Source: a virus (taxonomy: Duplodnaviria > Heunggongvirae > Uroviricota > Caudoviricetes). From it: DNA of 44,534 nt. This document shows positions 1 through 42,982 of this stretch, piece by piece. The position numbers and the translations under genes are program-made. Below the pieces are notes generated by a model that saw nothing but the letters and a program-made list of their open reading frames with translations, was not told the DNA's origin and did not search any database. The stretch's first letter is position 1. Every line of letters begins with the position of its first letter. Location: IMG/VR virus record IMGVR_UViG_2734482570_000015. One strand, given 5' to 3'.

Positions 1-3968
<3,968 letters not shown>

Positions 3969-4028
3969 TCCTCACGCTCCATAAACGACAAAACCGCCCG
4001 CAGGCGGTTTCTCATAAAACATTTTGCA

Positions 4029-4676
4029 TCAGCGACCAATCACCACAACCTGACCACCATCCCCTTCGTCTGCCGTGCTGATCTCCTGAGAAACCACACG
4101 TGACCCCACGCGCATTTCCCCGTACAGAACAGGCAGAACATTACCCTGGGCAACCATGTTATCCAGTGACGAGAAATACGTGTTCTGTTTGCCGTTATCT
4201 GTACTGGCTGCCGTGGGCGTCCTGGCTTTCGGTGCCAGCATCTGCGCCACACCACCCAGGATCATACTGGCCCCTGCTGCATACATACCCGATACAGCCG
4301 CGGCCCCCAGCCAGCCCACAGGGTTCCACCATGCCACCGCAATCAGCGCCGCACCCAGCACCGCCTGAAACACACCGCCACTTTTGGCACCCGCCAGACG
4401 CGGAACGATGTGGATCACGGCACCATTTGCCAGCGGTTCATTAAGACGGGCAGATAATTCATTTTCGCCTGCATCACGCCCGGCAATGCGCACCTGATAC
4501 CAGCCGTCGCTCAGTTTCTGACGAAATGCCGGGAGCTGTGTGGCCAGTGCCCGGATGGCTTCGGCCCCCGTTTTCACACGAAGGTCGATGCGGCGGCCAA
4601 ATCGCTGCAAATCCCCGTAAAGGCAGATGCGTGCCATGCCCGGTGACGCCAGAGGGAGTGTGTGCGTCGCTGCCAT
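4029..4676 (-). CDS. I: Tail assembly protein I
   Basis: 215 aa beginning MAATHTLPLASPGMARICLYGDLQRFGRRIDLRV, matching lambda gpI as recalled; sits between K and J. Confidence 0.85.
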   Translation of the reverse strand: MAATHTLPLASPGMARICLYGDLQRFGRRIDLRVKTGAEAIRALATQLPAFRQKLSDGWYQVRIAGRDAGENELSARLNEPLANGAVIHIVPRLAGAKSGGVFQAVLGAALIAVAWWNPVGWLGAAAVSGMYAAGASMILGGVAQMLAPKARTPTAASTDNGKQNTYFSSLDNMVAQGNVLPVLYGEMRVGSRVVSQEISTADEGDGGQVVVIGR

Positions 4677-5317
4677 TTGTCGGTGTACCTCTCTCGTTTG
4701 CTCAGTTGTTCAGGAATATGGTGCAGCAGCTCGCCGTCACCACAGTAAATGGCGGCATGATTCGGCACCGATGAACCAAAGCAGCACAGCAGCACATCGC
4801 CCGGCTGCGCCGTTGACAACGGCACCTGATACAGCCCTGTAGCCTCCAGATTATCCAGATAGAGATTCTGACCATTACGCCACCAGTCGTCCTCACGATG
4901 AAAATCTGGCATCTCAATTCCCGCCAGATGGTAAGCGTCCCGGAACAGCGTGTAACAGTCCGTCACCCCGTGCTCAAAGCGCCGCCCGGTGAGATGCGGC
5001 ACACAGCGGAACTTGTGAATCGCCCCGCGGCAGACCAGCCACCACGACAAATCACTCTGCACCTGCAGCCGCCGGTCGGCCTCACTCAGCCAGGGCAGAC
5101 CACCGGGGTGGCTGTGGACCAGCGCCACAATCTCACCCTGCATCTCTGCCTGCAGCCAGTCCTCCGGAGCCATCCGGAAATACTCCTCCGGCTCACCGGA
5201 AATATTCACGCAGGGAAAATATCTTTCCCCCTCCGGTGTTCTCACCACGAAGCCGCACGACTCCGCTGGCGCACATCGCCGGGCGTGCGCCAGAATCGCT
5301 GATTCTGTCTGTGTCAT
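4574..5317 (-). CDS. K: Tail assembly protein K (predicted JAB/MPN plus NlpC/P60 family); overlaps the start of I as in lambda
   Basis: 247-aa ORF beginning MTQTESAILAHARRCAPAESCGFVV with an HSHP motif; positioned between L and I. Exact 3' end uncertain (lambda K is shorter). Confidence 0.75.
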   Translation of the reverse strand: MTQTESAILAHARRCAPAESCGFVVRTPEGERYFPCVNISGEPEEYFRMAPEDWLQAEMQGEIVALVHSHPGGLPWLSEADRRLQVQSDLSWWLVCRGAIHKFRCVPHLTGRRFEHGVTDCYTLFRDAYHLAGIEMPDFHREDDWWRNGQNLYLDNLEATGLYQVPLSTAQPGDVLLCCFGSSVPNHAAIYCGDGELLHHIPEQLSKRERYTDKWQRRTHSLWRHRAWHASAFTGICSDLAAASTFV

Positions 5318-5322
5318 GGGAT

Positions 5323-6021
5323 TTACTGCGAAAGTTTGTTAATGGAAAGGAAGCCGCCAAAGTTGCCGACGTTATTGCGGAACTTACAACCGCTCAGGCA
5401 TTTGCTGCATTTATCCTTCGTGATATCGGACGTTGGCTGGTCATATTCATCCGCGACAGCCGGACCGTGATAACCGCACTCATCACCGCGATAGGTCCAG
5501 GTGCAGGTATTAGCAAGCATGATGCGCCCCGGAAAAACAGCGCCGTCCGTTTCCGTCGGCGTGGACAGTACAAAGGAGGCACTGACCGCGCTCAGTTCGC
5601 TGCACTGCTCAATACGCCAGCGGCTGATCACCTCCTGCTCCGGATCGGCGTCACTGTTTCCGTTGACGAAGTTCACCGCATCCAGAAAACGGGCGTAAAC
5701 CTTACGCCTGACCACCGTTCCGCCGACCAGACTCTGCAGGTCTTCCGCCATCCCGGTGACCATGCCGTGCAGATTAGAGACTTTCAGCGTTGGCCTTGCA
5801 CTGGCACCTTTGCCGTTCATCTCAAATCCACTCCCCTGAATGGGATAGGCCTGATACTGCCGACTCTGCCAGGTGACAGACTCTCCTTTCTCGTTCTGCT
5901 CATTGCAGAAAAAGTAGCGATCCCCGCCTACCTCGGTCAGGTCGATTTCCCAGAGCACCACGCTGGCCGACTGCTCCGCACGAATGCATTCATTCAGCGT
6001 TTCCTGTTGTATGTCCTGCAT
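5323..6021 (-). CDS. L: Minor tail protein L
   Basis: 232 aa, same length as lambda gpL; C-terminal Cys cluster (CSKCLSGCKF); synteny M-L-K-I-J. Confidence 0.85.
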   Translation of the reverse strand: MQDIQQETLNECIRAEQSASVVLWEIDLTEVGGDRYFFCNEQNEKGESVTWQSRQYQAYPIQGSGFEMNGKGASARPTLKVSNLHGMVTGMAEDLQSLVGGTVVRRKVYARFLDAVNFVNGNSDADPEQEVISRWRIEQCSELSAVSASFVLSTPTETDGAVFPGRIMLANTCTWTYRGDECGYHGPAVADEYDQPTSDITKDKCSKCLSGCKFRNNVGNFGGFLSINKLSQ

Positions 6022-6359: not shown

Positions 6360-9300
6360 TTAACATTCCCCCATCACGTCGCATATTTAACAGATTGCCC
6401 TGCACCCGCTGATCAACCATCCCCATAAGTGCTTTTATTGCCTGAGGGCCAATCTCTCCATTCTGGCCGTCATTTTGAATAGTGATTTGGTATACAGGGG
6501 CATAGGTAATATCTCCGCCTCCATTACCACTTTTACTATTAATAGCTCTGACACCAAGAGAACCATCGGAAGTTCGTGTTAATGGCATAATGGCTTCCGG
6601 TCCAGCCTCACCAAAAACACCAGCCCCTTTTGCAAAAGCAAAAAATTGCGGGGAATCATAAATACCGTTCGAATACGTGCTCAATGACGGAGACTCATAA
6701 ACACCGCCCTTTGCATTCGGAATAAATTTACTAATAGCACTCCCGATAGTTCCTAAAATCCCCCCAGAAGAACTGTTACTAATGCTGTCGAAAATCCCAG
6801 TAATTGAAGCCTTTAATGCTATTCGACTAAGATCCGAAATCACGGAAGTAGCGAAAGAACGAAAATTTGCCTTGCCTGTCGTGACAAAATCACCCAGCGC
6901 ATCGGTCATCCCATCAAACATCTGAGTCGTGGTTGATTTTATCTGCTCACTGATATCCTTAGTGTCATCCAGCCAGTTATTGAATCCCTGGGAGGCACCA
7001 CTAACCCAGTCTCCTGCCTGAATATCGAGCTGCTCGTTTTTCTGTCTGACAATTTCTTTTTCCCGTTCCAGAGCATCATTCAGAGCCTGCATTTTCTCTT
7101 GAAAAACATGATCTGACATTCCACGGGATTTATCTGCATAGTCACGTTCAAGTTGCAGACGCTGATTGTTATATCCATGTTCAATCCGCAGTAATTCCTG
7201 CTGGCGTTGCTGATTTTTATCGCCAACCCCATAACCAGCAATCTGAATATCATACCCCTGCTGACGATTATCAATCGAAGCCTGCAATGAATCACGCCAT
7301 GCTGTTATTTCGGCGGATTCCTTGATTAGCCTGTTATTTTTTTCAATCGCAACATTTTTCTCCATCAACGTGGTTATTTCTTCCCGGTGTAAGAGAAGCG
7401 ATTTCTGATCCTGGGTTAATTTCGATGATGGTCGTGACTCTAGGTCGGCAATCCGCTGACGCCACTTAACCAGTTCCTGTTCAGAGGAACTTAATTTAAC
7501 GGTCAACTCAGCTTGTGAACTTAGTAACGCATTCTGTTGATTCAGATGATCAATCATTCGTTGGGCTGCATCATCAGAATAACCTTTCGCCTTTGGTTGC
7601 TTTGGATCTTTATAACGCTCATTTATTTGAGCGATAAGATTATTATATTCTTCCTTTGAATACTGATTCTTTAGCTTTTCCAGTTTTGCAAGTTCACTAG
7701 CTCTCTGCTGCTCCCGGGTCTGATATTGTTTTGAAAAGGCATCTGCTCTCTGTCTGAGTTCAATTCCTTCCTGTTGTCGCTTGTTGTAATCGTTTATTGA
7801 TGAATTTAGTACGTCCTGAGCAATTTTTTCTGCTTGAAGTACGCCCAATTGCTGCTTTAATCGTGCCAGCCTTTTATTTTGAGCTCCGCCATCTCCAATG
7901 CCACCTAACCCGAAAACTCCGGGTCGGGTATTTTTTTCTATTTCATCAATTTGACGGAGAACATCTGAGATTTTTTGATCAAGGGAGGCCTCACGGCCAA
8001 TATCCAGCATGGAATCCCATGCCCATTTTGCGGAGTCTGCGACAGCTTTCCATGCAGTCTCAAGATAACCAAGATTTTCTTTAATCTGGTTGGTGCGCTG
8101 GATCATTGAGGATGAGTATTCTTCTGTCGCAATGCGGGCGGCCTCCTACTGGTTCCCTTCATCCTGTAGCGCCTTAATCTGGTTATAAGTCGCAAGTGTC
8201 AGAAAATGGTACTGATCATTAAGTTTTGATATGGCACTGACAGGATCCTTTGCAATTTCATTGAAGTCATTAACCAGTTGTTCGGTTGATATTCCTGTTA
8301 CTTCGCTCGTTTTTACTATCGCTGTCGTCACTTGCTCCAGCGAACTGCTCGCTACCTTTCCCGAACGCACAAGCTGATTTAATACTGCCGCCGCAGCACC
8401 AGTTGTCGAATCAGCCGCATTCCCGGCACGTTGAGCTATATCGCCCAATTGCCCGCTGGTTGTCCCCAACTGATTTCCGGTAAGAATAAGAGATTTATTA
8501 AATTCGTCCTGCTCCTGAGAGCCTTTATAGTAAGCCAGTCCTAAGACCCCAACGGCTGCTGCGGCCAGGGTAAAAGGATTAATTAATCCCAGCACATAAG
8601 AACCTACACCTTTGATCGCCGGGCCAATCCCACCGAACATATCTTTTAGCTGGCCGCCCTGCTGCATTAACACCATAAATGGCGACTGACCAGTGGACAA
8701 CCCAACAACAATATCCGTCATTTGTACAGGCAACATGCGCATAGCAAAAGCCGTTTGTTTTGCCGACATTCCGGTTTTGCTTAATTGTGATTGAGTAACC
8801 TCAAGCTCACTCCGCATAGCACGAAGTTTTCCAGAAAGCTCCTCATACATTTCAGGAGAAAGCATCCCCTTAGCTTTTGCTTCATTGAGCTGTTTCTGTT
8901 GTTCTACCAGACGATTAAAAGCAGTTCCGACAGGATCAAGTTGAGCAATCAGACGTTGCAAAGCAACAACCTGTTCATCATGCGCTTTTGCTGCTTCTCG
9001 CTCTGCCTGAGCCTCTCCGGTAAGCTCTCGCCGTGTTTCCTGTATTTTTCGGCTATAATTCTCAAACTGAGAACCATTTATTTTCCCGGATGCAAACGCA
9101 GCATTAAGTTCATCATGCTGTTGTTCAAGATTTCTTAGCGCCGCAGCCAGAGGGTCGATCTTGTCCAGCATTCTTTGAAAGGCCTGAGCCTGCGCTTCCT
9201 GCTGGGCGGCAGCAAGTTTTCCGGCCTTCTCGGCTTCTCTCTGCGCTTGCGCAACCCCGCTCAATTCCTCTGTGGTTTCATTAAGTTTACGGACAAGAAA

Positions 9301-22358: not shown

Positions 22359-23816
22359 TTAGGAGCGCCAAAAAAAACCTGAAAACAATATAATAACAGG
22401 ATAAATTTCAAGGCGACCAAGAATCATAGCTATGCACATTAAATATTTTGCAATGTCATTAAGCACTCCGAATGACGATGCAGTAGCCCCAAAACCTAAT
22501 CCCATATTATTAATACATGCAGCCACTGTTGCAAATGATGTAAGAAAATCATATCCCATACCATTTAACACCAGTATAAAAAACACCGTGAAGAGAGTAT
22601 AAAGAAAAAAGAAACTCCATACAGACCTCATTACACGATCTGTAACTATCTTCCCTCCTACATTTACACTCAACAACGCTCTGGGATGAGAAAGCTGATT
22701 TATCTCGTGTTTGCTTTGTTTGAAAAGTATAAGAAATCGAAGTGACTTAATTCCACCACAGGTTGAACCTATACATCCCCCAAAGAAACTTGACAACAGC
22801 AAAAACACTATCGTGTGCGTGGGCCAGTTTGCATAATCCTGCGTAGCTAAACCATTATCAGTGAGCATGGAGCTGGCAAGAAAAAACGAATGAATAAAAC
22901 TTCCATGCAAGTCATACATACCTATATGCCAGACCTGGAAAGAGGTAACAATGATCACCCCTAAGGCTATTAACAGAAAGAAACGAAGTTCAATATCTCT
23001 GATTAAAGGTTTTATCGTTTTTCTGCTAATAACAATATACCAAAGAGTGAAGTTGAAAGCCGATAGCAGGGAAAAAGAACCAGCCACCAGCTCAACCAAA
23101 TAGTTATTAAAATATCCGATACTCTCGCTATGAGTTGAGAAACCACCAAGCGAAACTGTGGAAATCCCGTGACAAATAGCATCAAACAAAGGCATTCCTG
23201 CAAGTCTATAACAGACAATACAAGCAATACCTAATAAAGAATAAGTTATCCACAGTGTCCGTGACGTATCGGCCAGGCGGGGAGTGAGTTTGTCATCCTT
23301 AAATGGCCCCGGCATTTCTGACTGATAAAGCTTTGCACCACCAATACCCAATAATGGCAATACTGCAACCGCCAGAACAATAACTCCTAAACCACCTATA
23401 AAATTTAACTGTGACCGATAGTACAAATATGCCCGAGGTAATGAACTAACATCATCAATTACAGTTGCTCCTGTTGTTGTTATTCCAGAAACCCCTTCAA
23501 ACAGAGCATCAATGAACGTTAAATTAAGTTCTGAGTCAATCCATAAAGGGAATGCACTAATAACAGAAAACAAAATCCAAAACATTACAATTATAATAAA
23601 CCCATCACGGGTACGTAATTGAATGCCAGATTTCTTAGTTGTATACCACGCTCCGCCACCAATGCAAAAAAATATAACGAAAGTTATAAAGAAAACGAAC
23701 AGGCTTTTTTCTTTATAAAACAATGCTACAACCATTGGTGGCAACATTGAAAGACTATAGAGCCAAACCAGGAACCCACACATATGAGTAACAACTCTTA
23801 CATGAGATGTATTCAT
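22359..23816 (-). CDS. trkG: TrkG potassium uptake protein (TrkH/TrkG family); low-GC moron inside the late region
   Basis: 485 aa from MNTSHVRVVTHMCGFLVWLY; multi-pass membrane protein. trkG is a known Rac prophage gene in K-12. Gene and upstream region are visibly AT-rich. Confidence 0.85.
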   Translation of the reverse strand: MNTSHVRVVTHMCGFLVWLYSLSMLPPMVVALFYKEKSLFVFFITFVIFFCIGGGAWYTTKKSGIQLRTRDGFIIIVMFWILFSVISAFPLWIDSELNLTFIDALFEGVSGITTTGATVIDDVSSLPRAYLYYRSQLNFIGGLGVIVLAVAVLPLLGIGGAKLYQSEMPGPFKDDKLTPRLADTSRTLWITYSLLGIACIVCYRLAGMPLFDAICHGISTVSLGGFSTHSESIGYFNNYLVELVAGSFSLLSAFNFTLWYIVISRKTIKPLIRDIELRFFLLIALGVIIVTSFQVWHIGMYDLHGSFIHSFFLASSMLTDNGLATQDYANWPTHTIVFLLLSSFFGGCIGSTCGGIKSLRFLILFKQSKHEINQLSHPRALLSVNVGGKIVTDRVMRSVWSFFFLYTLFTVFFILVLNGMGYDFLTSFATVAACINNMGLGFGATASSFGVLNDIAKYLMCIAMILGRLEIYPVIILFSGFFWRS

Positions 23817-23953
23817 ATCTAAATATTCTTTCAATTATAACCACCTTGCTGCAATATTATGATTATACTGTATAAAATTTAACTCCTCTTAGATCTTACT
23901 TCACTGTTCCTTATGAAACAATCATCAAAATGAATCATATTGTAGTTAAGATT

Positions 23954-24418
23954 TTACTTTAAACACTGCTCGGTTATGTATTGCTGAGCACCTTCAAGTT
24001 GGGCCTGCATCATTACCAGTCGTTCCCGGAGGGTGAAATAATCCCGTTCAGCGGTGTCTGCCAGTCGGGGGGAGGCTGCATTATCCACGCCGGAGGCGGT
24101 GGTGGCTTCACGCACTGACTGACAGACTGCTTTGATGTGCAACCGACGACGACCAGCGGCAACATCATCACGCAGAGCATCATTTTCAGCTTTCGCATCA
24201 GCTAACTCCTTCGTGTATTTTGCATCGAGCGCAGCAACATCACGCTGACGCATCTGCATGTCAGTAATTGCCGCGTTCGCCAGCTTCAGTTCTCTTGCGT
24301 TTTTGTCGCGCTGGGCTTTGTAGGTAATGGCGTTATCACGGTAATGATTAACAGCCCACGACAGGCAGACGATGATGCAAATAACCAGAGCGGAGATAAT
24401 CGCGGTTACCCTGCTCAT
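23954..24418 (-). CDS. rzpR: Rz i-spanin
   Basis: [50 protein letters not shown] matches lambda Rz as recalled. Confidence 0.85.
24013..24198 (-). CDS. rzoR: Rz1 o-spanin lipoprotein, embedded in Rz in the +1 frame
   Basis: 61 aa beginning [23 protein letters not shown] (lipobox VVGC) with a proline-rich segment [15 protein letters not shown]; fully nested inside Rz. Confidence 0.85.
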
Positions 24419-24912
24419 TGTTGACCCCACAAACAGACTTCACGCTCAATCTCACGACGGGTCATCAGCCCTTTCCATTGCTTACCGCCAGCATATGTCC
24501 AGCGACGTAGCTGATCACATGCGCCTTTGATATCGCCCTGGTTTATTTTGCGAAGAAGCGTCGATGTTCTGAAATTACCAGCGCCCACGTTGTAAACGAA
24601 CGAGTAAAGAGCGCCGCGCGTTGTTTCCGGTATATCGACTTTGATGTACGGGTTAATTTGTCTGGCGACAGTGGCAAGGTCTTTATTCAAGAGTGTTTTG
24701 CATTCTGCTTTGGTATACGTTTTACCGAGCATGATGTCTTTTCCTGTATGCCCGTGACATACAGTCCATACACCAACAATATCTTTGTATGGTATGTAGC
24801 TGACACCTTCCAGACCATCGTTACCACTTGGGCCAGTGATTAACACTGATGCTATAGCAATTGCTCCGCCACCAATAGCAGCAGCAACGACTTTTCGTAA
24901 TGATGGAGGCAT
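24415..24912 (-). CDS. SAR endolysin (lysozyme, phage 21 R-like)
   Basis: 165 aa with an N-terminal Gly/Ala-rich weakly hydrophobic segment ([20 protein letters not shown]) followed by a lysozyme-like domain; lies between holin and Rz. Confidence 0.8.
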
Positions 24913-25127
24913 TATTCACCTCTCGCAGCCTTGCGCTTATCTTCTTTAATCTTGAAATAAAGGTTTGTCAGGTACGTCAGCAGGCCAAATACCAGACTAC
25001 CCAGCACACCGATTGCAGCCCACTGTGACGGAGTTACTCTATCGAGCAACTGTAAAAACCAGTAGCCAGCACTGCCTGCGGAGGTGCCGTAGGCAATGCC
25101 TGTTGAAATTTTGTCCATGGATTTCAT
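24912..25127 (-). CDS. Pinholin (phage 21 S-like), with dual-start motif MKSMDK
   Basis: 71 aa from the ATG preceded by CGGAGGTGAGG; two Met codons three codons apart (Met-Lys-Ser-Met); two hydrophobic segments; C-terminal basic tail [13 protein letters not shown]. Confidence 0.8.
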
Positions 25128-25235
25128 AGCCTCACCTCCGCACGGAACGGATGGCATAGTTATTATGTGTAGGCTTTCAGACACATCAATCAGAGCCTTA
25201 ATTGATATATATGCTGGAGACGATGCAATATAAAA

Positions 25236-25253
25236 AGCTCGCCGTAGCGAGCT
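25236..25253 (-). terminator. Rho-independent terminator downstream of the lipoprotein genes
   Basis: Minus strand reads AGCTCGC-tacg-GCGAGCT followed by TTTTATATT. Confidence 0.6.
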
Positions 25254-25378: not shown

Positions 25379-25774
25379 CTAACCTCGCATGTCAAAGCCA
25401 GATTTCTGAAAATCTCTGTAGACTTCCGGATTGTTGAAGGCCGGAAATTTGGCTTTATGAGCTGCGGACTTTATCGCTTCGCAATAGGCTTTATCACCGT
25501 TACTGGTAGATATTTTTAACGCCGTGCCATCCTGAGAGAATTCCATATGCAACCTGCATTTTTTCCCTTTCCAGTTATGCGGCTCATCAAGTTTGGCATT
25601 AATTGCAGCTCTGATTCCCCGCGCTTGCGCCCCCCATTCATCCTGATCATCCCAGCGTCCTGAACTGCAACTACCTGTAGCAGTAGTTTTGTGGCAATCT
25701 GAAGGGTGTAAAGGTGTGCATCCCGCAACAAAACCGACCCAAAAAGTCAACATAACGATTTTCTTTAATCCCAC
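25379..25774 (-). CDS. Lipoprotein with TolA domain-III-like C-terminal domain (paralog 1)
   Basis: 131 aa; signal peptide plus lipobox (MLTFWVGFVAGC). C-terminus GKKCRLHMEFSQDGTALKISTSNGDKAYCEAIKSAAHKAKFPAFNNPEVYRDFQKSGFDMRG resembles the TolA C-terminal domain as recalled. Confidence 0.6.
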   Translation of the reverse strand: MGLKKIVMLTFWVGFVAGCTPLHPSDCHKTTATGSCSSGRWDDQDEWGAQARGIRAAINAKLDEPHNWKGKKCRLHMEFSQDGTALKISTSNGDKAYCEAIKSAAHKAKFPAFNNPEVYRDFQKSGFDMRG

Positions 25775-25924
25775 TTCTTGCTCCTCAATCCATTAAAATC
25801 TCAGCAATAGTAGTTGTTACGTCCGCCACTGGCTCAGAGCTGACTATCCGCTAAATTTAGCTCAGTGCCGTAGCTGTGTCAGAACAAACCTAAGCCGAAA
25901 CCGTTTATTACAAAACAATAAATA

Positions 25925-26353
25925 TCAGGGTTTAAAATCCAGCACCCCATTTTGAAATACTTTATATACTTCCGGCGAAGGGGGGGCAGGTATATCAGCA
26001 TTCTTTATCGCATTCATCGCTTCACGACATAAATCGAGGTCTCCACTTTCTCTTTTAACCTCCAGTAGAAGGCCATTCGGGGCCATATGCATTCTCAGTG
26101 TACACTCTTTTCCTGAATACTTACTCGCATCCCCGAACTGTTTTTCGATGGCGCTCTTGATTTGATGGGCATACAGACGGATATCCTCACTAACATCAGA
26201 AGTACGTTCAGATGAACTCACATACTGTGTCTCTATTGCTTTATCGGAGTAATATGATGTACGGTCATGATAATTTGTCGATACAGCATCAGTGCACCCG
26301 ATAATAATCCCACTAATAATCAACGTAAGAATTGATGCGCTACGAAAACCCAT
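25925..26353 (-). CDS. Lipoprotein with TolA domain-III-like C-terminal domain (paralog 2)
   Basis: 142 aa; lipobox IIIGC. C-terminus YAHQIKSAIEKQFGDASKYSGKECTLRMHMAPNGLLLEVKRESGDLDLCREAMNAIKNADIPAPPSPEVYKVFQNGVLDFKP is close to the E. coli TolA C-terminus as recalled (...AGQIKSAIESKF...GKTCTLRIKLAPDGMLLDIKPEGGD...PPSQAVYEVFKNAPLDFKP). Confidence 0.7.
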   Translation of the reverse strand: MGFRSASILTLIISGIIIGCTDAVSTNYHDRTSYYSDKAIETQYVSSSERTSDVSEDIRLYAHQIKSAIEKQFGDASKYSGKECTLRMHMAPNGLLLEVKRESGDLDLCREAMNAIKNADIPAPPSPEVYKVFQNGVLDFKP

Positions 26354-26382
26354 TTTTCCTCACATATGTCATATAGTAAAGG

Positions 26383-26412
26383 ATTATATATACCGTTGTT
26401 TTGGACGCTCAA
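26383..26412 (-). promoter_or_regulatory. Sigma70-like promoter for the TolA-like lipoprotein gene
   Basis: Minus strand: -35 TTGAGC, 18-nt spacer, -10 TATAAT, about 30 nt upstream of a GAGGA Shine-Dalgarno sequence and the ATG at 26353. Confidence 0.5.
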
Positions 26413-26941
26413 ACAGCGAATCAGATCAAATAAAACGCACATTTGTTAACATTTACACAAAGTCTGCGTGGGATATTCTGAAAGAATATCCATAATGTGG
26501 AGAGAATCTATTGAAGTGCATGGTGCCGGGTGCCTCCCGGTGAACAAAATGTTCGTGATACCTGTCGGCGACAGAAAAGGTTAATGGTATCACCCCACCG
26601 CACAGGGGGATTCACCATGCAGGAGTTTTCTTAGCAAACTCACTGCGCGCCCGGCAACTCCCAACCACATAAAATGCGGAGTTTGTGGCATTTATGCATA
26701 TAACTCGCAGGAATTATCTTAAAAAACTGATGTCGATCCGGATTAAAAAGAAGCAGGTCATCATCAGATGACTGGAAAAAAGGAAAACAAAAAATACTCA
26801 TCATACAGTTTTGATTGCAGGGATGAGCCTGCTATGCACAATATGCAGAATATAAGCAAGATAAAAATATGCAGGCATATTATTTCGGATCTTGTTATTA
26901 ACACAACCTTTTTAATAATCATTTGGCATACAATAAACCAG

Positions 26942-26970
26942 CCCAAAAAGAACCGCCTAAACAGGCGGTT
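26942..26970 (-). terminator. Rho-independent terminator in the long leader between tR' and the lipoprotein genes
   Basis: Minus strand reads AACCGCC-tgttta-GGCGGTT followed by CTTTTTGGG. Confidence 0.5.
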
Positions 26971-27290
26971 GGTCAATACAAAGGATGCTTCGTCTTTATT
27001 ATAGTAATCTGAGGCGTCGGGTGTCTTGTATCAGACAACATATTGTCCCGCTAAACAGCGAATTACAAACCACCCTGCAATGATCTCTCATCTCATTTTA
27101 TATGAGTTGACGACATCAGGATAACGCATCATCAGCCCCTGCCAAGAAATATCAAAACTCCCGCCAGCAATGTGTTATCACAATATTGTAAAAAAAACAC
27201 AGCACCGAAACTATAACTGGTCTCTGTTATAATTTGGAGCAGAAAGACCAGTTGCCCAACTAGCAGCATTCTCCCCTGCTTTCCTGACGT

Positions 27291-27318
27291 AAAAAAACCG
27301 CATTAAGCGGTTTTTTTA
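27291..27318. terminator. Bidirectional hairpin terminator about 80 nt downstream of Q; candidate tR'
   Basis: AAAAAAACCGC-attaa-GCGGTTTTTTT: symmetric A/T arms, so it reads as a terminator on both strands. Confidence 0.6.
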
Positions 27319-27397: not shown

Positions 27398-27940
27398 TCA
27401 AGCCATTTTCTCAGCAAATGATTCACGCATGGGAATATATAGGGCATACTCAGCAACAGCTAACCAATTAGCAATCCGTTTTTCGCATGTGCTAAAACAC
27501 CACTCTGGGTGTGCATCATTTAGCAATTCAGCCATTTTGCGCTTAGTCATCCCCCGCCCTTCATAGCGTTGCCGGAGAATGCAAATCAATCCTGGATGCT
27601 CTGCCAGCACCTCACTTATGACTCGATCAATACATAACGCCTCTGCATCAGTACAATGCGCCAGCCAGCTCTTTTGCTTGCCGTTGATCATCTCTCGCAA
27701 AAACGCTTCCAGCTCAGCTTTCTCTATTCCCGCTTTTTTCATTCTGCGCAGGGCTTCATTAATGGCTGTTTTCGTCAGTTTTTTGGATGCCAACAACTGA
27801 TTGAACATATTCCCTGACCTGCCACCGCCAATATACGACCAGCGCCCCCACATACGTAGTTTTCCCTGAATCCAGACACTTTCCAGCGTGGTGAGGCGAA
27901 GGTGTTCTCCGCTTTTTCCTGTATTCGTTGGGTAAATCAT
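27398..27940 (-). CDS. Late-gene antiterminator Q (putative)
   Basis: 180-aa ORF directly upstream of the tR'-like terminator and late genes, downstream of the Nin-region genes; RLTTLESVWIQGKLRMWGRWS segment is reminiscent of the Q antiterminator family (from memory). Confidence 0.6.
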   Translation of the reverse strand: MIYPTNTGKSGEHLRLTTLESVWIQGKLRMWGRWSYIGGGRSGNMFNQLLASKKLTKTAINEALRRMKKAGIEKAELEAFLREMINGKQKSWLAHCTDAEALCIDRVISEVLAEHPGLICILRQRYEGRGMTKRKMAELLNDAHPEWCFSTCEKRIANWLAVAEYALYIPMRESFAEKMA

Positions 27941-42793: not shown

Positions 42794-42982
42794 ATGTATA
42801 AAATTACCGCCACTATTGAAAAGGAAGGTGGCACTCCTACTAACTGGACAAGATATTCAAAATCTAAACTAACGAAATCAGAATGCGAAAAAATGCTCTC
42901 AGGTAAAAAAGAAGCAGGCGTTTCCAGAGAGCAGAAAGTAAAACTGATAAATTTTAATTGCGAGAAACTTCAGTCCTCGTGA
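42794..42982 (+). CDS. ydaC: YdaC (small Rac protein)
   Basis: 62 aa beginning MYKITATIEKEGGTPTNWTRYSKSKL; lies between ralR and xis as in K-12 Rac. Confidence 0.6.
   Translation: MYKITATIEKEGGTPTNWTRYSKSKLTKSECEKMLSGKKEAGVSREQKVKLINFNCEKLQSS

Follow-up and report, generated by a model that had tools for sequence, protein, structure and literature searches.

The window analyzed here is a 44,534-nucleotide stretch of DNA (IMG/VR virus record IMGVR_UViG_2734482570_000015) and is a Rac-type lambdoid prophage of Escherichia coli whose late region is read on the minus strand. Between its Q-like antiterminator gene and its P21-type lysis cassette lie two genes, p142 and p131, both on the minus strand, each of which would encode a small lipoprotein ending in a module that resembles domain III, TolA's C-terminal domain. 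A first-pass annotation, made from the letters alone, had placed a tandem of such genes here, and both open reading frames were found again where it had put them. The two genes and their parts are as follows.

25925..26353, minus strand: p142 gene, 142 aa, ATG start, Shine-Dalgarno (SD) sequence GAGG at 26358..26361
26294..26353, minus strand: p142 signal peptide and lipobox IIG↓C20, read from the sequence, Cys invariant
26192..26293, minus strand: p142 disordered linker, residues 21-54, predicted local distance difference test score (pLDDT) <50 at residues 18-50
25928..26191, minus strand: p142 TolA domain III (TolAIII) domain, residues 55-142, 52/88 residues identical to E. coli TolA 334-421
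25379..25774, minus strand: p131 gene, 131 aa, GTG start, SD sequence GAGGAG at 25780..25785
25718..25774, minus strand: p131 signal peptide and lipobox VAG↓C19, read from the sequence, Cys invariant
25646..25717, minus strand: p131 linker, residues 20-43, pLDDT <50 at residues 1-27 and 29-41
25382..25645, minus strand: p131 TolAIII domain, residues 44-131, 27/88 residues identical to TolA

The first-pass annotation had read a signal peptide and a lipobox in each frame, and both are directly visible in the sequence. The N-terminus is MGLKKIVMLTFWVGFVAG↓C19-T in p131 and MGFRSASILTLIISGIIIG↓C20-T in p142, with positive n-region charges at K4/K5 and R4, respectively, and the segments FVAG↓C19 (p131) and IIIG↓C20 (p142) both conform to the lipobox pattern [LVI][ASTVI][GAS]C. 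The lipobox Cys is invariant in 22 of 22 aligned family members. Because Thr and not Asp follows it at position +2 in both proteins, the +2 rule predicts outer-membrane sorting, and p142 and p131 are predicted to be outer-membrane lipoproteins. The RefSeq start of p131 is an internal ATG that loses the positively charged n-region of the signal peptide; we prefer the longer GTG start (25774) because the SD sequence GAGGAG lies 5 nt upstream and because plasmid alleles of p131 carry ATG at this codon. The p131 linker is conserved in the family alignment and contains two additional conserved cysteines, C27 and C36.

Both C-terminal domains match the Pfam TolA C-terminal family PF06519 (gathering score 25 bits), p142 with 82.6 bits (E 2e-23) and p131 with 54.6 bits (E 1e-14), and phmmer comparison with E. 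coli TolA in the PDB gave E-values of 5e-28 and 5e-9, respectively. The 88-residue alignment to TolA 334-421 is gapless for both proteins, at 59% identity for p142 and 31% for p131, and equivalents of the TolA disulfide cysteines C363 and C388 are kept in both. The likeness of the 142-aa protein to the TolA C-terminus, which the first-pass annotation had pointed out, holds when the two are set side by side, PPSPEVYKVFQNGVLDFKP in p142 and PPSQAVYEVFKNAPLDFKP in TolA. In AlphaFold models the domains have pLDDT >90 in both proteins. The best Foldseek matches are to E. coli TolAIII, namely 2x9a_B at a root-mean-square deviation (rmsd) of 0.6 Å and 1tol at 0.7 Å for p142, and 3qdp at 1.1 Å for p131, with template modeling (TM) scores normalized to the target of 0.96 and 0.92. 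Alignment and structure prediction, the check that the annotation had proposed for itself, therefore return a significant TolA domain III match for both proteins. Collectively, the sequence comparisons and structure models fully support the description of p142 and p131 as lipoproteins with a TolA domain III-like module.

At only 131 and 142 aa, the two proteins do not have the full-length TolA architecture of anchor, domain II, and domain III. In place of the TolA anchor they begin with a lipoprotein signal, and matches to TolA profiles are confined to the last ~80-100 profile positions. Thus p142 is above the TIGR02794 cut-off only over profile positions 265-362, while NF007065 scores of 107.8 (p142) and 53.7 (p131) are both under the cut-off of 213. 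Both proteins fall in PHROG 5772, a family of 'unknown function' (6.7e-65 for p131). Judged by this profile coverage, p142 and p131 are members of the TolA C-terminal domain family and are not TolA.

The two domains differ in how much of the TolA ligand-binding surface they share. In two reports (PMC4339652; PMC7391070), the N1 domain of filamentous-phage g3p (g3p-N1), colicin N (ColN), and the TolB N-terminus each add a beta-strand to strand beta3 of TolA (A415-K420) and also contact the helix G334-E349. These reports give the TolA substitutions D418P or K420P as abolishing g3p, ColN, and TolB binding, the backbone hydrogen bonds being essential (PMC4339652; PMC7391070). For colicin A (ColA), strand addition is to TolA L375-P380, and K368, K379, and K396 take part in cation-pi contacts (PMC3365938). 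The corresponding positions compare as follows.

Helix alpha1, residues identical to TolA out of 16: p142 11/16; p131 4/16
Strand beta3: TolA FKNAPLDFKP; p142 FQNGVLDFKP (7/10); p131 FQKSGFDMRG (2/10)
ColA-contacting lysines, three in TolA: p142 2/3; p131 0/3

Equivalents of TolA D418 and K420 are retained in p142, and the beta3 motif LDFK is invariant in every divergent p142 allele examined. With the alpha1/beta3 surface kept, p142 looks like the likelier mimic of TolA itself. We make no claim for selective conservation of the binding surfaces, as p142 is identical to TolA at 21/32 residues there and at 31/56 in the remaining domain, values too close for a clear difference. In p131 the fold is kept and the surface changed, suggesting that its ligand may differ from that of TolA; a different ligand, or an additional one, is probable for p131. 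We considered and dropped a resemblance between SGRWDDQDEWG, in the p131 linker, and the ColE9 TolB box (DGSGWSSENNPWGG), because DQDEWGAQ aligns with TolAIII helix alpha1 (GADINNYA) and hence belongs to the domain and is no separate epitope.

The term 'paralogous', which the first-pass annotation had used for the pair, stands insofar as the genes are homologous but not in the sense of close paralogues, as the domains are identical at only 25/88 positions (28%). The p142 domain is nearer to host TolA (52/88) than to p131, and a recent tandem duplication is thereby ruled out. Recent capture of the 3' end of host tolA is ruled out as well. A sensitive blastn search ('distant' mode) with the p142 gene matched 898 of 5426 complete E. 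coli genomes and not all of them, so the resident tolA goes undetected and p142 is no recent copy. The ratio of nonsynonymous to synonymous substitution rates (dN/dS) is 0.34 for p142 against a 66%-identical allele and 0.11 for p131 against an 88%-identical plasmid allele; by these estimates both genes are under purifying selection. In many genomes PGAP/RefSeq nevertheless labels p142 a tolA pseudogene ('incomplete, missing N-terminus'), and in others it annotates an intact 'tolA' coding sequence; in NZ_CP029492.1, for example, the pseudogene at locus positions 6726..6986 is the p142 gene. The label is a naming artefact, both because p142 passes TIGR02794 through domain III alone and because of the selection estimated for the gene.

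We then consider how the pair may be transcribed, for which the surrounding elements are listed here from the Q-like gene downstream, followed by two markers of the prophage family.

27398..27940, minus strand: Q-like antiterminator gene, DUF1133 match, Phage_antitermQ marginal at 26.1 bits with a cut-off of 26
26998..27027, minus strand: pR'-like promoter upstream of the pair
26951..26970, minus strand: tR'-like terminator upstream of the pair
26464..26650, minus strand: STnc100-family small RNA (sRNA), Rfam RF02076, 86.6 bits with a gathering score of 47
26383..26412, minus strand: sigma70-like promoter TTGAGC-18-TATAAT upstream of p142, 10/12 match
25775..25924, minus strand: p142-p131 spacer, 150 nt, without a terminator, fold z -0.83
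25854..25882, minus strand: weak promoter-like site in the spacer, 9/12
25228..25253, minus strand: intrinsic terminator between p131 and the holin gene, 7-bp stem with five GC pairs, U-tract
24912..25184, minus strand: P21-type pinholin gene of the lysis cassette
24415..24912, minus strand: lysozyme gene (signal-arrest-release, SAR, endolysin) of the lysis cassette
23954..24430, minus strand: Rz gene of the lysis cassette
22359..23834, minus strand: trkG, a Rac-family marker
42800..42978, minus strand: RalA antitoxin sRNA, 225 bits

The first-pass annotation had given the pair its own promoter and a downstream terminator. The terminator is borne out by a hairpin at 25253..25236 with a folding free energy (dG) of -13 kcal/mol (z -4.66), followed by the U-tract UUUUUAUAU. 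The promoter is present as described, with its 10/12 match, but promoter-like sites of the region are not enriched over shuffled sequences, and the p142 promoter is for this reason a prediction only. The spacer lacks a terminator and the p142-p131 spacing (given as 154 nt) is identical in 76 of 77 viral-contig copies, which makes co-transcription of the two genes likely. Given the pR'- and tR'-like elements upstream, Q-modified polymerase would also transcribe through the pair into the lysis genes. GC content is modestly lower in the insert (40-45%) than in the Q and lysis genes (47-53%), and other cargo fills the same Q-to-lysis slot in related prophages. The promoter-like site, the terminator, and the lower GC between Q and lysis amount to a moron architecture, and we regard the pair as a candidate moron with predicted expression in the repressed lysogen.

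Several further elements were observed around the pair. A perfect 12-bp palindrome, GCTAAATTTAGC, lies at ~25846..25857 in the spacer, overlaps the weak promoter-like site, and could be an operator. About 80 nt past the Q-like stop codon, a very stable hairpin at ~27290..27315 on the minus strand (dG -19.6 kcal/mol, z -7.8) is flanked by A- and U-tracts on either side; it was missed by the terminator scanner and looks like a bidirectional terminator. Immediately upstream of the p142 promoter, the late leader region encodes the STnc100-family sRNA. RalA and trkG show this to be a Rac-family prophage of full length, its structural and lysis modules intact, in contrast to K-12, whose Rac is defective. 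STnc100 has been connected to the prophage PasD sRNAs (2026 preprint).

The exact tandem cassette is present in 773 of 5426 complete E. coli genomes (~14%). Any part of the 1.3-kb region is matched in 1341 E. coli genomes, and ~25% of the genomes carry one or both genes or a close relative; these matches include plasmid-borne p131 relatives, with 526 places on plasmids. A relative is encoded by 152 IMG/VR viral contigs, and 77 of the 80 examined have both genes, the remaining three ending just past p142. The p142 family is confined to E. coli and Shigella, with alleles down to 65% identity. One allele, 66% identical, stands alone in the stx slot of Stx-like prophages (positions 3947..4375 of two examined loci), where the order is Q, DNA methylase, tRNA-Ile, tRNA-Arg, p142 allele, and, further downstream, nanS-p.

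The p131 family is more widely but patchily distributed in the Enterobacterales: members with 65-99% identity occur in 25 GTDB species representatives. In Serratia the gene adjoins a GmrSD/HEPN pair. An 88%-identical allele sits directly downstream of nikB on ~600 I-complex (IncB/O/K/I-gamma) plasmids of E. coli and Shigella; in four examined plasmid loci this homologue was seen at ~4000-5435. The homology of these plasmids to p131 begins ~35 bp before the start codon and stops 4 bp past the stop codon, and with such sharp borders the plasmid allele is a single-gene cassette. I-complex plasmids make I-type pili, which are used by the filamentous phage If1. The g3p of If1 binds TolAIII (PDB 2X9A). 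Two 8-kb metagenome-assembled contigs labeled Lachnospiraceae and Treponemataceae carry an 89%-identical p131 gene and are probably mis-binned enterobacterial plasmid contigs.

Beyond these two families, searching 1.84 billion cluster representatives with a profile produced 580 matches. Among the top 150 of the 580, 95 are no longer than 170 aa and 62 of these have a lipobox; short TolAIII lipoproteins thus form a diverse class. On 379 plasmids, mostly from Klebsiella, a TolAIII-lipoprotein gene overlaps a gene for an exported TonB C-terminal domain (for example NZ_CP065951.1, locus positions 7818..8551). The first gene of this pair encodes a 123-aa lipoprotein (lipobox LLTA↓C, PF06519 85.8 bits) that ends in IFKNAPLDFRP, and the second a protein of 121 aa in which a signal-peptidase-I signal precedes a TonB C-terminal domain (42.5 bits to PF03544). 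Most of the 379 are 10-12 kb mobilizable ColRNAI replicons, CloDF13-like bacteriocin plasmids; pKP2509-5, the sole plasmid examined in full, is CloDF13-like and carries genes for a 561-aa cloacin-like bacteriocin and for immunity and lysis proteins. In the original CloDF13 the slot of the pair is filled by the unrelated proteins K and L, which were ruled out as homologues because tblastn found no similarity and only the slot is the same. A comparable neighbor occurs in Raoultella terrigena, in which a 111-aa exported TonB_C protein (31.3 bits with a cut-off of 24.6) is encoded two genes downstream of a p131-family gene, at 7140..7475 of the examined loci. A fourth TolAIII lineage adjoins a thioredoxin-fold gene on an IncFII/IncR Klebsiella plasmid. 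Over the 88 residues of the domain, the TolAIII lineages are 26-60% identical and their alignment has no gaps.

Starting from the gene structure, lipobox, fold, homology, selection, and distribution established above, we infer a localization, expression in the lysogen, binding partners, and a phenotype for p142 and p131. The reading we prefer, to which we would assign an even chance, is that the two proteins are tethered decoys or dominant-negatives of Tol-dependent import that protect the lysogen. The pair would be transcribed as a unit of its own, set into the late operon after the Q-like antiterminator gene and ahead of the lysis cassette, and its products would be lipoproteins that hold out a free TolA domain III at the outer membrane on a flexible linker of ~25-35 residues. 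This tethered domain would compete for ligands that dock by beta-strand addition onto the C-terminal domain of energized, inner-membrane TolA. The ligands captured would include g3p-N1 of filamentous phages and the domains by which group A (Tol-dependent) colicins and bacteriocins translocate; on emerging through the outer membrane, these ligands would bind a domain uncoupled from TolQR. Import would then stall, leaving the lysogen tolerant.

Levengood-Freyermuth, Click and Webster reportedly found in 1993 (J Bacteriol 175:222) that wild-type cells with an excess of TolAIII in the periplasm were leaky and showed tolerance to colicins E1, E2, E3, and A. Periplasmic g3p-N1 sequesters TolA and produces colicin A resistance together with a 4-log drop in phage uptake (PMC10424213). 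The affinity for TolA is ~1 μM for ColN and ~40 μM for TolB (PMC4339652), so a modest amount of decoy should trap invaders preferentially. TolAIII lipoproteins of independent lineages, recurring on bacteriocin plasmids beside the exported TonB C-terminal domain, on I-complex plasmids, and in the stx slot, and hence on elements involved in bacterial competition, also make a decoy function more plausible.

A number of observations weigh against such a role. The contact residues of TolA are missing from p131 (alpha1 4/16, beta3 2/10, ColA lysines 0/3), and its family occurs as a lone chromosomal gene amid metabolic genes in Enterobacter, Klebsiella, and Raoultella, a setting that fits a housekeeping envelope role as well as defense. 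Only one of 50,697 isolated phage genomes (mEp460_ev081) has p142/p131, neither protein was recognized by PADLOC among known defense families, and the 11 promoter-like sites of the region compare with 7.9±3.0 in shuffles. A TolAIII decoy would compete for the TolB N-terminus too and could thereby cost the cell a leaky outer membrane. Finally, we know of no tailed phage that needs TolA; a lambdoid prophage would therefore gain only against colicins and filamentous phages.

One alternative, which we consider unlikely, makes the tethered domains Tol-Pal modulators: by occupying the N-terminus of TolB, or some other partner in the Tol-Pal system, they would partly release TolA from its coupling to TolB-Pal. 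The looser outer membrane would favor vesiculation or periplasmic leakage, or contribute to envelope disruption and the release of cargo upon induction from the late promoter. Placed between the pR'/tR'-like elements and the holin, the genes would be strongly expressed upon induction, and the stx slot holds one p142 allele. The conserved beta3 strand of p142 is the TolB-binding site as well (PMC4339652), periplasmic TolAIII reportedly causes leakiness (Levengood-Freyermuth et al. 1993), and leakage of this kind could help cells with a bacteriocin plasmid to release the bacteriocin. The window, however, already has a complete holin, SAR-endolysin, and Rz lysis set, and from its bracket of promoter and terminator the pair would be expected to be expressed in the lysogen, to which a leaky envelope would be a burden. 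The weak TolA-TolB interaction (~40 μM; PMC4339652) would moreover demand large amounts of protein, the TonB C-terminal domain that accompanies TolAIII on bacteriocin plasmids has no role in outer-membrane stability, and the chromosomal and plasmid homologues are unconnected to lysis. A lysis-accessory role tied to the P21-type cassette is likewise unlikely, as the cassette flanks vary and homologues lie far from lysis genes.

It is similarly doubtful, although p131 in particular invites the idea, that these are host-type envelope proteins carried by mobile elements, with a physiological ligand of their own that is unrelated to colicin or phage entry, such as peptidoglycan, an outer-membrane protein, or a periplasmic partner. 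The conservation of the p131 family and its Cys-containing linker across Enterobacterales genera, its frequent position alone amid chromosomal metabolic genes, and a surface unlike that of TolA all agree with this account, and its dN/dS of 0.11 is typical of proteins whose partner is fixed. On the other hand, p131 occurs in E. coli and Shigella on prophages and, as a cassette with precise borders, on the ~600 conjugative plasmids; the species distribution is patchy, and the neighbors include the GmrSD/HEPN pair in Serratia and the exported TonB C-terminal-domain protein in Raoultella. That the genes are non-functional remnants, a truncated tolA pseudogene (p142) plus a hypothetical open reading frame, as the PGAP label and the confinement of the TIGR02794 match to positions 265-362 might suggest, is highly improbable for a p142 frame that stays intact, with a start, SD sequence, signal peptide, and lipobox of its own, even among alleles of only 65% identity, evolves at a dN/dS of 0.34, shows no blastn similarity to host tolA, and has a confident, compact domain model.

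The tethered-decoy reading bears on more than this locus. TolA domain III is the point through which group A colicins as well as filamentous phages gain entry, and it has a central part in keeping the outer membrane stable. Natural tethered mimics of it, if they confer tolerance, would provide broad-spectrum resistance acting at the uptake step and not on the toxin. This would matter for the ecology of colicins and bacteriocins in the gut, for designing therapeutic bacteriocins or phages whose entry route is Tol, and for understanding the use of the stx-type moron slot in non-toxigenic prophages. More tentatively, lipid-anchored or exported TolA and TonB C-terminal domains may be a widespread, unrecognized class of uptake-level immunity genes on prophages and on conjugative and bacteriocin plasmids, a generalization that we consider possible but hold at less than even. 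If it is true, hosts would be tolerant to whole bacteriocin classes and to filamentous or TonB-dependent phages, with p142 a decoy for binders of the TolA beta3 strand and p131 one for another ligand. Full-text literature searches gave no functional study of p142/p131 and no recognition of such a class. The annotation at the domain level is already in RefSeq and Pfam; many such genes are now called tolA or tolA pseudogene in RefSeq, and their annotation is affected as well.

Among known systems, the closest structural relative is E. coli TolA domain III (334-421; PDB 1TOL, 2X9A, 3QDP/3QDR, 1S62), with which the two proteins have the fold and the disulfide pair in common. TolA itself has a transmembrane domain I, with the SHLS anchor coupling it to TolQR, and a helical domain II. 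Both are absent from p142 and p131, which have instead a lipoprotein signal and a short disordered linker and are predicted to hang from the outer membrane; unlike TolA, they would be unable to transduce the proton-motive force. In their proposed action they resemble engineered periplasmic TolAIII and g3p-N1, in which a free interaction partner blocks Tol-dependent import. The engineered TolAIII is a laboratory construct and g3p-N1 the filamentous phage's own immunity, whereas p142 and p131 are natural, lipid-anchored, and encoded by plasmids and by prophages of tailed phages. Similar logic applies to exported TonB C-terminal fragments, which Howard et al. in 2001 are said to have found dominant-negative for TonB-dependent uptake. 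There, too, the free C-terminal domain of a transducer competes in the periplasm with the energized protein, but the exported TonB domain belongs to another transducer system and is soluble in the periplasm, while p142 and p131 are lipoproteins.

As candidate moron cargo, the pair shares with stxAB, the lambdoid morons of the Q-to-lysis interval, both the slot and the logic of a bracketed, lower-GC insert; bor and lom are lambdoid morons located elsewhere in the genome. The fold and presumed function of the cargo in p142/p131 differ from those of stxAB, bor, and lom. Homology to Cor (phi80, N15, HK022), Llp (T5), or TraT (F) was not found, Pfam, PHROG, and PADLOC searches returning only TolA and PHROG 5772. 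The likeness to these proteins is one of type, as all are small mobile-element lipoproteins that are sorted, or in the case of p142 and p131 predicted to be sorted, to the outer membrane, and those of prophages have moron-like expression, which for p142 and p131 is again a prediction. Cor, Llp, and TraT block the entry of competitors by masking an outer-membrane receptor (FhuA or OmpA). By comparison, p142 and p131 would be entry-blocking lipoproteins of mobile elements that mimic a periplasmic co-receptor instead of masking the receptor.

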